Assembly: GCF_053078305.1 (NCBI RefSeq)
Contig: NZ_CP166879.1
DNA length: 64,000 bases
Reading direction: 5' to 3' (one strand)
Shown: positions 32,224 to 34,095 of the stretch, one piece after another
Layout of the letters: every line of letters begins with the position of its first letter
Numbering within the stretch: the stretch's first letter is position 1
Made by a program: the position numbers and the translations under genes
The notes under the pieces: generated by a model
Seen by the model: only the letters and a program-made list of their open reading frames with translations
The model's database searches: none
What the model was told of the DNA's origin: nothing

Positions 32224-32529
32224 ATGCCGGACGGTCAGACTTCACTCCTGGCAAAACTGATTATCATCGGTGCTGCCATCGGGCTGGGGCGTCTCATGGT
32301 GAGCCGCGATCGCATCACAGCCCGTCTGCTTATCGGGCGAATGATTATGGGCTCTGCCGTGGCACCGGTTGCCGCCATTCCGCTGTTTAAATTTCCGGAC
32401 ATGCCGGAGCTGGTAGTGGTCGGTCTGGCGTGCGCGCTGGGCATTATGGGCAGCGCCTTTATTGAAGAATGCTTTTGCCGTCTGGCAGACCGCTACCTGA
32501 AGCAGAAGGAACGCAGAAATGACCCATAA
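32224..32529 (+). CDS. Putative holin (small multi-TM membrane protein)
   Basis: 101 aa with 2-3 hydrophobic segments and charged C-terminus; lies upstream of endolysin and spanins. Confidence 0.5.
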   Translation: MPDGQTSLLAKLIIIGAAIGLGRLMVSRDRITARLLIGRMIMGSAVAPVAAIPLFKFPDMPELVVVGLACALGIMGSAFIEECFCRLADRYLKQKERRNDP

Positions 32530-33271
32530 GCCTTACATTTCGCCTTCCCTGAGCCTGTATCACGCGCAGGCGCATGACGTTCTGCGGATGCTGCCGGAAA
32601 ACAGTGTGGACGCGCTCATCACAGACCCGCCATACAGTTCAGGTGCCACACACAAGGCGGGGCGGACATGCCAGGGCAGCCACGCCAAATACATCAACGA
32701 TGAAGATCTTCACCGCTTTGAAGGCTTCGAAGGCGAGAACATGGACGCCCGTTCATGGGAATACTGGACGCATCTGTGGATGACACAGGCATGGCGCACG
32801 GTACGACCCGGTGGTTACGCCCTGGTCTTCACCGACTGGCGGCAGTTGCCCGCGCTGACGGACGCATTCCAGGCCGCCGGTTTTACCTGGCGGGGGATCG
32901 TGGCATGGAACAAGGGACGGGCCTCAAGAACACCGCATACCGGTTATTTTCGTCACCAGTGCGAATATGTGGTCTGGGGCAGTAAAGGCGCGCTGGGCAA
33001 ATCCCCTTCCGGGCCGTTCGACGGCTGCATCACGCACCACACACGCCCACAGGAGAAACAGCACCCGACAGGTAAACCGGAATCGTTGATGGATGAGCTT
33101 GTGCGCGTGTGTGAACCCGGAGGGCTGATCCTCGATCCGTTTATGGGGTCCGGCACCACGGGCGTGGCCGCCCTTCGCCGGGGCTGCCGTTTTACGGGTA
33201 TTGAACTGAACGCCCACTATTTCAGCGTGGCACAGGCGCGCCTTACGGGGACGGAACAGAGGAGTGACTGA
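32519..33271 (+). CDS. DNA methyltransferase, beta-class amino-MTase (N6-adenine or N4-cytosine)
   Basis: 250 aa; catalytic DPPY motif (DALITDPPYSSG) precedes AdoMet motif (DPFMGSGTTG), the order typical of the N6_N4_Mtase family. Confidence 0.75.
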   Translation: MTHKPYISPSLSLYHAQAHDVLRMLPENSVDALITDPPYSSGATHKAGRTCQGSHAKYINDEDLHRFEGFEGENMDARSWEYWTHLWMTQAWRTVRPGGYALVFTDWRQLPALTDAFQAAGFTWRGIVAWNKGRASRTPHTGYFRHQCEYVVWGSKGALGKSPSGPFDGCITHHTRPQEKQHPTGKPESLMDELVRVCEPGGLILDPFMGSGTTGVAALRRGCRFTGIELNAHYFSVAQARLTGTEQRSD

Positions 33272-33609
33272 TGAAACTGAGCGAAAAACAACAACTGTTT
33301 GCCGTCATGATTGCCGATCTCATCCACTGGGCACAGGAGCACGGCTATCGCCTGACCTTCGGCGAGGCATACCGCACGCCGGAGCAGGCCGCACTGAATG
33401 CGAAAAGCGGAAAAGGCATTCGTAACAGCCTTCACACGCTGCGCCTCGCGGTGGACTTCAACCTGTTCATTAACGGCAAATACCAGGCCGACACCGACGC
33501 CTACAGGCCGCTGGGGGAATACTGGGAATCCATCGGCGGCACATGGGGCGGGCGCTTCAGCCGGGCAGACGGCAATCATTTCAGCCTTGAGCACAACGGG
33601 GTGAAATGA
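33271..33609 (+). CDS. Endolysin, peptidase M15-like (L-alanyl-D-glutamate / D-Ala-D-Ala peptidase fold)
   Basis: 112 aa; His/Asp metal-ligand-like pattern (H...DxxH...H) ending HFSLEH; lies in lysis cassette; 1-nt overlap (TGATG) with methylase. Confidence 0.6.
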   Translation: MKLSEKQQLFAVMIADLIHWAQEHGYRLTFGEAYRTPEQAALNAKSGKGIRNSLHTLRLAVDFNLFINGKYQADTDAYRPLGEYWESIGGTWGGRFSRADGNHFSLEHNGVK

Positions 33610-33992
33610 TGAAACAGCTGGCGGGCTGCCTGGTGATCCTCTTTGCCGCCATGTGGGCGGGCTGGCTGGCCCATGACTGGCATGACGCCAGGGTGGCGCT
33701 TGCCGAACAGGAAGCCATGGAAGCCACGCGACGGGCGGTGACAGAAGCCGGGCAGCAGTCCGCCCGCATACTGGAAAAAAGGCTGGAGGCGTTAAAGGGC
33801 AATGAAATTCACACTGAACGCGTTATTCACACGGAAACCGTCCGCCCGGTATTCCGCAATGTGTGCGCTACTGATGATTACGTCCGGCTGTTCAACGCCC
33901 GTGCTGAAGCCGCTGAACGTACCCTGGCAGGAAAACCAGCTGACGGAATGCCCGAAGACACTGCCGAGACTGGCAGGCCCGACAGGCGCTGA
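33606..33992 (+). CDS. i-spanin (Rz-like)
   Basis: 128 aa; N-terminal TM (LAGCLVILFAAMWAGWLA) followed by charged coiled-coil-like periplasmic part. Confidence 0.6.
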   Translation: MMKQLAGCLVILFAAMWAGWLAHDWHDARVALAEQEAMEATRRAVTEAGQQSARILEKRLEALKGNEIHTERVIHTETVRPVFRNVCATDDYVRLFNARAEAAERTLAGKPADGMPEDTAETGRPDRR

Positions 33993-34095
33993 TTTTGATG
34001 CGGCACTGCGAACCCTCACGAGCCGCTACACCGAATGCGCCGCCAGGCATAACAGCCTGGTGGAAACCATACGAAACACGGAGAAACTGCAATGA
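33859..34095 (+). CDS. o-spanin (Rz1-like lipoprotein) overlapping the 3' part of the Rz-like gene in another frame
   Basis: Lipobox-like LMITSGC after short hydrophobic signal; Pro-rich mature part; track ORF 33802..34095. Confidence 0.55.
   Translation: MCALLMITSGCSTPVLKPLNVPWQENQLTECPKTLPRLAGPTGADFDAALRTLTSRYTECAARHNSLVETIRNTEKLQ

Follow-up and report, generated by a model that had tools for sequence, protein, structure and literature searches.

Why does a gene for a DNA methyltransferase lie between the holin and endolysin genes of a prophage, and what might the enzyme do there? The gene was found in a 64,000-nucleotide stretch of contig NZ_CP166879.1 (NCBI RefSeq assembly GCF_053078305.1; hereafter, the window), which carries an E. 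coli prophage of the Peduoviridae with a late module of the HP1/Irrigatiovirus type, located between dmsA and serS; a search with a 14-nt seed found no att repeats at the prophage ends. The genes first read from the sequence, i.e., a holin, a methyltransferase, an M15-type endolysin and overlapping Rz/Rz1-like spanins between a tube-like gene and the tail chaperone, were all recovered, with family matches far above chance (Table 1). The methyltransferase had thus been correctly read, and is a fairly ordinary accessory gene in a rare prophage of the HP1/P2 family.

Table 1. Genes of the lysis cassette and its flanks (positions in the window)
Feature	Position	Strand	Family matches and remarks
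Tail sheath gene	30611..31756	+	PF10758 DUF2586, E=2.6e-129; phrog_907 tail sheath, 1e-146; same late gene array, upstream of the cassette
Tail tube gene, HP1 Orf24 type	31758..32219	+	PF10772 Phage_HP1_Orf24, E=2.8e-51; phrog_1182
Holin, 101 aa	32224..32529	+	PF04550, E=1.2e-19; phrog_175 holin, 5.7e-31
Beta-class DNA amino-methyltransferase, orphan, 250 aa	32519..33271	+	PF01555 N6_N4_Mtase; phrog_67
Endolysin, M15 (LAS-type) zinc peptidase, 112 aa	33271..33609	+	PF13539 Peptidase_M15_4, E=3.4e-10; phrog_1768 and phrog_465 endolysin
Rz-like inner-membrane spanin, 128 aa	33606..33992	+	phrog_1152 Rz-like spanin, 5.5e-31; N-terminal transmembrane segment
Rz1/LysC-like outer-membrane lipoprotein spanin, 97 aa	33802..34095	+	phrog_2425, 2.2e-22; phrog_456 Rz-like spanin, 1.5e-5
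Tail assembly chaperone	34092..34367	+	PF10963 Phage_TAC_10, E=3.8e-31; downstream boundary of the cassette

The lysis genes form a canonical holin-endolysin-spanin cassette, with a small membrane holin, a cytoplasmic muralytic enzyme, an Rz protein with a transmembrane segment at its N-terminus and an Rz1 lipoprotein whose gene overlaps that of Rz in another frame. The holin gene, 4 nt from the end of the tube gene (the start of which agrees with that annotated by RefSeq in strain N51), codes for a protein with three hydrophobic segments. The endolysin has no signal sequence, and an H-x6-D motif followed by a later His in its translation are candidate zinc ligands. The rz1 ORF begins within rz in another frame, covers its 3′ half and extends beyond its end; the product carries the lipobox ITSGC, with the Cys at position 30, and matches PF23793 (LysC) weakly and below the cut-off (E=1.2e-3), and a full-length ORF with the SGC lipobox is kept in 11 relatives.

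The placement of the whole cassette had been considered atypical for P2, an anomaly that is not borne out, because the tail/lysis module is of the HP1 and not of the P2 type. The order sheath, tube, holin, endolysin, Rz, chaperone and tape measure, with a tube of the HP1 Orf24 type and a DUF2586 sheath, corresponds to that of HP1 (sheath-tube-hol-lys-Rz-orf26-tape measure), and is the same in the Irrigatiovirus phages (Salmonella SI7, SW3 and SW5) and in Cronobacter ESSI-2 and Yersinia vB_YenM_324; from tube to chaperone, SI7 shares it with 41 further relatives that lack the methylase. Such a layout is the canonical one and has long been known. The SI7-type phages also resemble the window in sequence (tube 84-87%, holin 68-73% and M15 endolysin 83-86% identical), whereas HP1 has a different holin and a lysozyme-type endolysin. 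The methyltransferase is missing from HP1 and the Irrigatiovirus-type phages alike, and in these the holin gene directly overlaps the endolysin gene. On sequence comparison, the methyltransferase is the only added element in an otherwise HP1-type cassette. Its own position, also predicted to be atypical, is indeed unusual, but it recurs in a Salmonella Mu-like prophage (see below).

The junctions of the insert were read base by base in the window against SI7 and other relatives. Relative to the methylase-free forms, the insert covers positions 32519..33270 of the + strand (752 nt), consists of the ORF only, and is bounded by ATGA at both ends (32519-32522 and 33271-33274). The ATG of the methyltransferase occupies the position of the endolysin ATG in SI7, inside an Asn codon of the holin gene (AAT-G); the first 11 nt of the methyltransferase gene are at the same time the last 11 nt of the holin gene. 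At the other end, the methyltransferase stop and the endolysin start overlap in TGATG, and the Shine-Dalgarno sequence of the endolysin is supplied by the 3′ end of the insert (GAGGAGTGACTG). The distance from the end of the holin gene to the start of the endolysin gene, -4 to +17 nt in 41 methylase-free loci, is 745 nt in the form that bears the methyltransferase. The insert differs from a classical moron, which brings its own promoter and terminator, in being ORF-only and overlapping both neighbours. Between the capsid genes and the cassette neither promoter-like sites above chance nor a terminator-like site on the + strand were found (sigma-70-like and terminator-like sites occur at the shuffled expectation), and the P2-type late-promoter dyad TGT-N12-ACA shows no enrichment, with 10 copies in the window where 15 are expected; by analogy, the cassette may be assigned to a late promoter. 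Co-expression with the late lysis genes, as originally predicted, is plausible, since the overlaps on both sides leave no intergenic room for signals of the gene's own.

The enzyme itself has the sequence and fold features of a beta-class amino-methyltransferase with DPPY ahead of the AdoMet-binding FxGxG, in agreement with the original prediction. The protein matches PF01555 with 97.8 bits (Pfam gathering threshold 26.7; E=1.2e-27), phrog_67 with 3.4e-70 and the PADLOC model MTase_II with 6.9e-62, and the motif order is that of the beta permutation (DPPY, residues 36-39; FMGSG, residues 208-212, within FMGSGTTG, residues 208-215). In an alignment of 37 family members, the others of which are 50-70% identical, the conserved residue is present at all 49 invariant columns. 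An AlphaFold2 model (pLDDT 87, pTM 0.88), searched with Foldseek, matched N4CMT, CcrM, M.BceJIV and M1.HpyAVI at TM 0.65-0.74, and the matches also included M.PvuII, M.MboIIA and M.RsrI (E from 1e-18 to 1e-12 over the whole set). Both the beta-class fold and the motifs are intact.

What the enzyme recognizes is harder to read from its relatives. Fold and motif order are shared with CcrM (6pbd), M.BceJIV (8urk), M1.HpyAVI (5hfj) and the rotifer N4CMT (8s9m), with sequence matches at E 1e-20 to 1e-22, but identity to the solved beta-class enzymes is only 21-26%, so that target recognition is not transferable from them. The C-terminal domain of CcrM is absent from the window protein, which scored 86 bits against the CcrM equivalog model (cut-off 830) and 105 bits against PRK13699, an NCBIfam methyltransferase subfamily (cut-off 244). 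The modified base is probably N6 of adenine, an assignment favoured by the DPPY motif and by the source annotations of homologues ('adenine-specific', Bpm of BPP-1), although the best structural match of the model acts on N4-cytosine. A literature search covering Bpm of BPP-1, Com-linked methyltransferases and E. coli methylomes returned no specificity for a close homologue, and we found no report of expression, activity or target motif for the window protein or a close homologue. The GC content of the gene (60.2%) falls within the range of its neighbours (57-61%) and gives no support to a recent foreign origin by composition.

The methyltransferase had been called an orphan, with no restriction endonuclease partner evident nearby, and closer analysis did not bring a cognate nuclease to light. 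Both direct neighbours are lysis genes. A search of the flanking genes and of 10 further prophage ORFs, either unassigned or large, gave no nuclease domain, and the RefSeq annotation of this prophage in strain N51 lists none. Five prophage ORFs, of 131, 209, 140, 134 and 241 aa, have no family assignment.

The closest homologues are found in Escherichia phage Chuche (73% identity), a Yersinia kristensenii prophage (67%) and Salmonella (65%). In Chuche, in Burkholderia phage KS5 (gp20/gp21) and in the Yersinia and Salmonella prophages, members of the same methyltransferase family are likewise orphan, accessory cargo of Peduoviridae in or near late regions; P2-like Burkholderia phages are described as carrying methyltransferases inserted in late regions, in one case together with Com (PMC3091744). 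The Com-preceded homologues are found either at the end of the prophage or in the Z/fun region of P2. Like mom in Mu, they follow a gene for the translational activator Com, a zinc-ribbon protein (PF10122, Zn_ribbon_Com), and they have their start codon in a hairpin. The window gene differs from them in having no Com, in the first 25 or so residues of its product, which are unrelated, and in its location inside the lysis cassette. Whereas in the Chuche homologue a hairpin covers the Shine-Dalgarno sequence and the AUG, none is seen in the start region of the window gene, which is no more structured than shuffled controls (z=-0.5). Among the ORFs listed for the lysis region and for the right end of the prophage, none resembles Com, RefSeq annotates none in this prophage, and the gene directly upstream is a holin, unlike in a Com-controlled operon of the Mu com-mom type.

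The same position is taken by a methyltransferase in a Salmonella Mu-like prophage (P0011; loci L004-L006 and L227), which is 60% identical and also 250 aa long; its gene is flanked by those for holin and endolysin, and overlaps each of them in ATGA. The backbone of this prophage (GemA/Mor, a Mu-type portal), its holin (PF04971) and its endolysin (a PF00959 lysozyme) are all unlike those of the window, which indicates a separate insertion event; upstream of distant relatives of its lysozyme, only small ORFs were seen. We considered whether holin-methyltransferase-endolysin is a common arrangement of the family, and rejected it: a census of the non-redundant neighbours of the homologues (99 downstream, 113 upstream) gave one downstream endolysin, one upstream holin and two upstream GH108 endolysins, and the commoner neighbours were Com (7), DUF1804 (6), tail sheath (6) and primase-type genes. 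Many family members adjoin primase/Prim-Pol, integrase or resolvase genes, and late expression is therefore not a rule for the whole family.

Within E. coli, the gene is present in 11 of 5,426 complete genomes. Near-identical prophages are polymorphic for its presence, and two of the methylase-free siblings share their genomes with methylase-bearing copies; strain O22:H8 154, with two such prophages, is an example. In the siblings L095 and L224, about 47 nt of the 5′ end of the methyltransferase gene remain between holin and endolysin; the 50-nt spacer of the methylase-free siblings was considered as an ancestral empty site and rejected, as it holds the first 16 codons of the methyltransferase, which are missing in SI7-type phages. 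These remnants indicate that sibling prophages have deleted the gene again, and given this loss the methyltransferase is dispensable.

We think it probable, on balance, that the gene encodes a late-expressed, lysogen-silent orphan methyltransferase that methylates the DNA of progeny phage against restriction. A 752-nt segment with the methyltransferase alone has been inserted at the holin/endolysin junction; as it seems to bring along no expression signals, we infer that the gene would depend for its transcription on the Ogr/Delta-controlled late operon alone, and be silent in the lysogen. It would be translated in step with holin and endolysin, and in the late phase the enzyme would use AdoMet to methylate a short motif on replicated phage DNA before packaging, such that progeny genomes would arrive in the next host already protected against those restriction enzymes that are blocked by the mark. 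Embedding in the lysis cassette, like Com upstream of the closest homologues, would confine expression to cells that are already doomed. A site-specific enzyme would guard against few restriction systems only, which counts against a role in protection, as does the dispensability of the gene. Phage-borne orphan methyltransferases help to set the range of hosts that is open to a phage and to the genes that it transduces, and the comparison of Com-controlled with lysis-cassette homologues suggests a simple idea of how potentially harmful enzymes may be confined to the end of infection.

Prophage-borne DNA-modifying enzymes with such a life style are known. Mu com-mom and the relaxed-specificity phage methyltransferases M.EcoGII/M.EcoGI and Hia5/Hin1523 are silent in lysogens, confined to the late phase, harmful if made early, and block many restriction enzymes; for Mom and M.EcoGII, silence in lysogens, toxicity upon expression and protection have all been described (PMC5778455, PMC3299994, PMC12707154). 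Their likeness to the window gene is a functional analogy. Mom has no sequence relationship to the window methyltransferase; kinship with M.EcoGII, a beta-class enzyme of 349 aa that belongs to another subfamily (PMC5778455), and with Hia5/Hin1523, which are alpha-class and Dam-like (PMC3299994), was rejected. It is conceivable, if doubtful, that the widespread 250-aa family is itself a relaxed-specificity analogue of Mom and M.EcoGII, toxic when made early, and held in check by either of two interchangeable safety devices, the translational switch Com or embedding between holin and endolysin. The latter, which the window and, independently, the Salmonella Mu-like prophage would exemplify, would limit synthesis to cells bound for lysis. 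Were this the case, the family would offer a new supply of methyltransferases with broad specificity, and a place within the lysis cassette would be a recognizable mark of dangerous phage cargo.

The gene could also be a selfish or neutral passenger of little use to the phage: a compact cassette, no more than the ORF, which has spread through recombination where start and stop codons meet in ATGA and is now disappearing again. Its distribution is rare and patchy, and deletion derivatives exist; the most divergent E. coli allele has three differences in 753 nt, one of them nonsynonymous, as against a divergence of about 2-3% in the prophage flanks, a contrast that points to recent spread; and the family spans very distant phyla at 45-56% identity. 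Yet the catalytic and family-invariant residues are all intact, translational coupling is kept on both sides and the ribosome-binding site of the endolysin has been rebuilt, which argues that the arrangement has been under selection and makes us regard a mere passenger as unlikely. The locus illustrates how compactly an accessory gene can be wired into a late operon, taking over the start site of a neighbour and donating a new ribosome-binding site, and how readily it is lost again.

We likewise think it improbable that the methylation serves the phage's own biology, i.e., the timing or licensing of replication, late transcription or packaging, rather than the evasion of restriction. Dam methylation plays such a part at the pac sites of P1, and phage enzymes that mimic CcrM may play one in Alphaproteobacteria. 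Many homologues of the window gene adjoin replication genes (six Prim-Pol and five D5_N among the downstream neighbours), and regulatory roles have been proposed for phage orphan methyltransferases (PMC5537653, PMC12707154). However, the gene is missing from near-identical siblings and from all SI7-type relatives, so that an essential regulatory role in this phage is unlikely, and its position in the lysis cassette means that the enzyme would be made too late for the control of earlier steps. Finally, although the prophage ORFs without family assignment might hide a nuclease and an Mrr_cat gene lies downstream at a single one of about 100 homologue loci, it is very improbable that the gene is half of a split or unrecognized restriction-modification or exclusion system, with the nuclease encoded by a small prophage ORF or elsewhere in the host, as the gene has lysis genes on both sides, the search of the prophage gave no nuclease domain and a methyltransferase made only late would be unable to shield the chromosome of the lysogen from its partner. 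For the favoured reading, late methylation of progeny DNA, the methylomes of lysogens need show no matching motif, and the target would be readable from virion DNA or from the cloned gene.

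The original prediction of a lysis cassette with a DNA methyltransferase gene between the holin and endolysin genes was borne out by ORF listing and profile searches, which recovered every gene it had named, at the positions it gave. The Rz1 assignment is made firmer by 11 relatives that conserve the whole 97-aa ORF, including its basic N-terminus, hydrophobic core and ...SGC lipobox.

Genes of the lysis cassette and its flanks, with positions in the window and best profile matches
Gene	Position	Profile match
Tail tube	31758-32219	PF10772 HP1_Orf24, 2.8e-51
Holin	32224-32529	PF04550, 1.2e-19; phrog_175
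Methyltransferase	32519-33271	PF01555, 1.2e-27; phrog_67, 3.4e-70
M15 endolysin	33271-33609	PF13539, 3.4e-10
Rz	33606-33992	phrog_1152, 5.5e-31
Rz1, out-of-frame overlap with Rz	33802-34095	weak LysC matches
Tail assembly chaperone	34092-34367	PF10963, 3.8e-31

E. coli strain N51 has a counterpart of the region at 99.6% identity, within a prophage that sits between dmsA and serS. Alongside a P2-type integrase, Cox, replication gene A, Ogr/Delta and genes for the portal, terminase and capsid, this prophage has a tail and lysis module of HP1 type, with a DUF2586 sheath and an Orf24 tube. Among sequenced phages, Salmonella SI7, SW3 and SW5 (Peduoviridae, Irrigatiovirus) come nearest, at about 74% nucleotide identity; absence of the methyltransferase limits their coverage of the query to 69%. 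Gene order is sheath (orf23), tube (orf24), hol, lys, Rz-like (orf25), orf26 and orf27 in Haemophilus phage HP1, and tube, holin, endolysin, Rz, chaperone and tape measure in SI7. Loci were also drawn from IMG/VR by tube protein, and those that were long enough and had a tube of 80% identity or more were kept; all 43 (SI7 included) have the cassette order of SI7, with the endolysin start −4 to +17 nt from the holin end in 41. Thus, the placement of the cassette, thought to be atypical, is so only relative to P2 itself; for a prophage with the HP1-type layout it is the usual one, and it looked odd because the architecture is not that of P2.

The methyltransferase is wired precisely into the holin/endolysin junction. 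In SI7, the endolysin ATG lies within the penultimate region of the holin gene (...CGC AAT GAA ACT GAG TGA; ATG read from AAT-G); in the window, the equivalent AAT-G in the holin end (...AGA AAT GAC CCA TAA) starts the methyltransferase, the 3′ end of which (GAG GAG TGA CTG A) runs into the endolysin ATG and supplies the endolysin Shine–Dalgarno sequence. Read against SI7, these junctions define an insert of 752 nt (32519-33270) that is ORF only, is bounded by ATGA at both edges, and has no room for a promoter or terminator of its own. Its GC content (60.2%) is like that of the neighbouring genes. The motif order of the protein is beta-class (DPPY at aa 36-39, then FMGSG at aa 208-212), and it matches 49 of 49 invariant columns in a 37-sequence family alignment. 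A confident AlphaFold2 model (pLDDT 87, pTM 0.88) has N4CMT, CcrM, M.BceJIV, M1.HpyAVI, M.PvuII, M.MboIIA and M.RsrI as best PDB structural matches, and PDB matches were also found at the sequence level. The methylated base is probably N6-adenine.

Family members are very numerous and broadly distributed: Streptomyces, Planctomycetota, Bacillota, Burkholderiales and many phages have homologues at 45-56% identity. The nearest homologues (65-73% identity) all have a gene for Com, the zinc-ribbon translational activator, ahead of them and lie at a prophage end, often beside hok/gef; they include those of Escherichia phage Chuche, of an HP1-like prophage in Yersinia kristensenii (its spike-like protein and that of the window share 48% identity), of a Salmonella prophage and of IMG/VR loci L009-L019. 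The window prophage has hok/gef at the corresponding end, but neither Com nor a methyltransferase there. In Salmonella Mu-like prophages, as at L004 of Salmonella enterica (3807-5286; GemA and Mor upstream), a methyltransferase of 60% identity follows a P21-type holin (PF04971) and precedes a lysozyme (PF00959), overlapping each at an ATGA; upstream of distant relatives of this lysozyme there are only small ORFs. The holin-methyltransferase-endolysin order here is an independent occurrence. In other Mu-like prophages the gene lies between DUF1804 and the large terminase. Among non-redundant neighbours from 160 fetched loci, the upstream ones (n = 113) included seven Com, six DUF1804, two GH108 endolysins and one holin, and the downstream ones (n = 99) six tail sheath, six Prim-Pol, five D5_N, several terminase/portal, one endolysin and one Mrr-type nuclease. 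Thus, the great majority of the family are orphans, and it is a gene that moves readily between phage modules; its holin/endolysin position is rare, yet arose at least twice.

The stretch from the capsid genes to the cassette showed no plus-strand terminator-like site and no excess of promoter-like sites over shuffled expectation. The methyltransferase start region is unstructured (z = −0.5), whereas in the Com-dependent Chuche homologue the Shine–Dalgarno sequence and AUG are hidden in a hairpin. Since the gene has no signals of its own, it would be expressed only within the late transcript shared with tube, holin and endolysin. Accumulating in the late phase, the enzyme would then methylate phage DNA that has replicated but is yet to be packaged; its activity would not matter to the dying host and would leave no mark in the methylome of the lysogen. 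Late, lysogen-silent anti-restriction methylation is, on this analysis, the moderately favoured function. It follows the logic established for Mu Mom/Com and for M.EcoGII and related prophage enzymes (PMC3299994; PMC5778455; PMC12707154; PMC4659465), and methyltransferases in the late regions of P2-like Burkholderia phages, one with Com, fit the proposal (PMC3091744). Two TGT-N12-ACA dyads (the P2 Ogr-box pattern), at 32077-32094 in the tube gene and 32384-32401 in the holin gene, lie about 130 nt upstream of the holin and methyltransferase starts, respectively; they are probably chance matches, since the window shows no enrichment of the pattern, with 10 occurrences against 15 expected.

Of 5,426 complete E. 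coli genomes, 11 have the cassette with the methylase, as do two IMG/VR contigs (L094 and L096). The alleles are nearly invariant, the most divergent copy having three differences in 753 nt (one nonsynonymous), against about 2-3% in the surrounding DNA. Patchy distribution and near-identical alleles would suit a neutral or selfish passenger, but the careful preservation of the coupling and of all catalytic residues would not; this is the less likely reading. The gene is missing from sibling prophages in which tube and holin proteins are identical: L095 (3967-4658) and L224 (1508-2202; the second prophage of E. coli O22:H8 strain 154). Three complete genomes carry two copies of the prophage type, and the methylase is missing from both second copies shown. 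The siblings are not empty sites: they keep the first ~47 nt of the methyltransferase, differing from intact alleles at four of ~50 positions, followed by AGGAGATACCCC-ATG of the endolysin. SI7-type phages lack these 47 nt, and the siblings are therefore secondary deletions. An essential regulatory or packaging role is unlikely, because near-identical phages manage without the gene. A hidden nuclease partner has no support, a search of ten unassigned or large ORFs of the prophage and of the N51 RefSeq annotation having yielded nothing in its favour. The earlier description of an orphan, late-expressed methyltransferase is reasonable. Of mild interest are the surgical wiring of the ORF, the return of this arrangement in a Mu-like prophage and what appears to be a substitute for control by Com.

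Several minor observations were made. Homologues in a Buttiauxella MAG (L150) and in Pelomonas sp. (L151) directly follow a 176-aa ORF with one hydrophobic segment; judged by ORF size, these are likely the loci behind the GH108/PG_binding_3 endolysins of the census and, if so, represent two further lysis-gene contexts. In Phaseolibacter flectens (L145, 2459-3871), the methyltransferase ORF appears to span ~470 aa, a length suggestive of fusion or of a missed stop codon; its small flanking ORFs have one hydrophobic segment each. Two tandem hok/gef-type toxin modules (window 45102-46164; period ~722 nt, 94% identity) contain 46-aa ORFs at 45261-45401 and 45983-46123; N51 has three copies there, and the related Chuche and Yersinia (L007) prophages have hok, then Com and methyltransferase, at the equivalent end. 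A 45-aa ORF (34418-34555; DUF6890 in RefSeq) between the chaperone and tape-measure genes may be a frameshift-extension region of the chaperone, like P2 E/E′. The tail-fibre gene (38816-40876) is an intact 686-aa ORF, its counterpart in the otherwise 99.6% identical N51 prophage being annotated as two pseudogene fragments.
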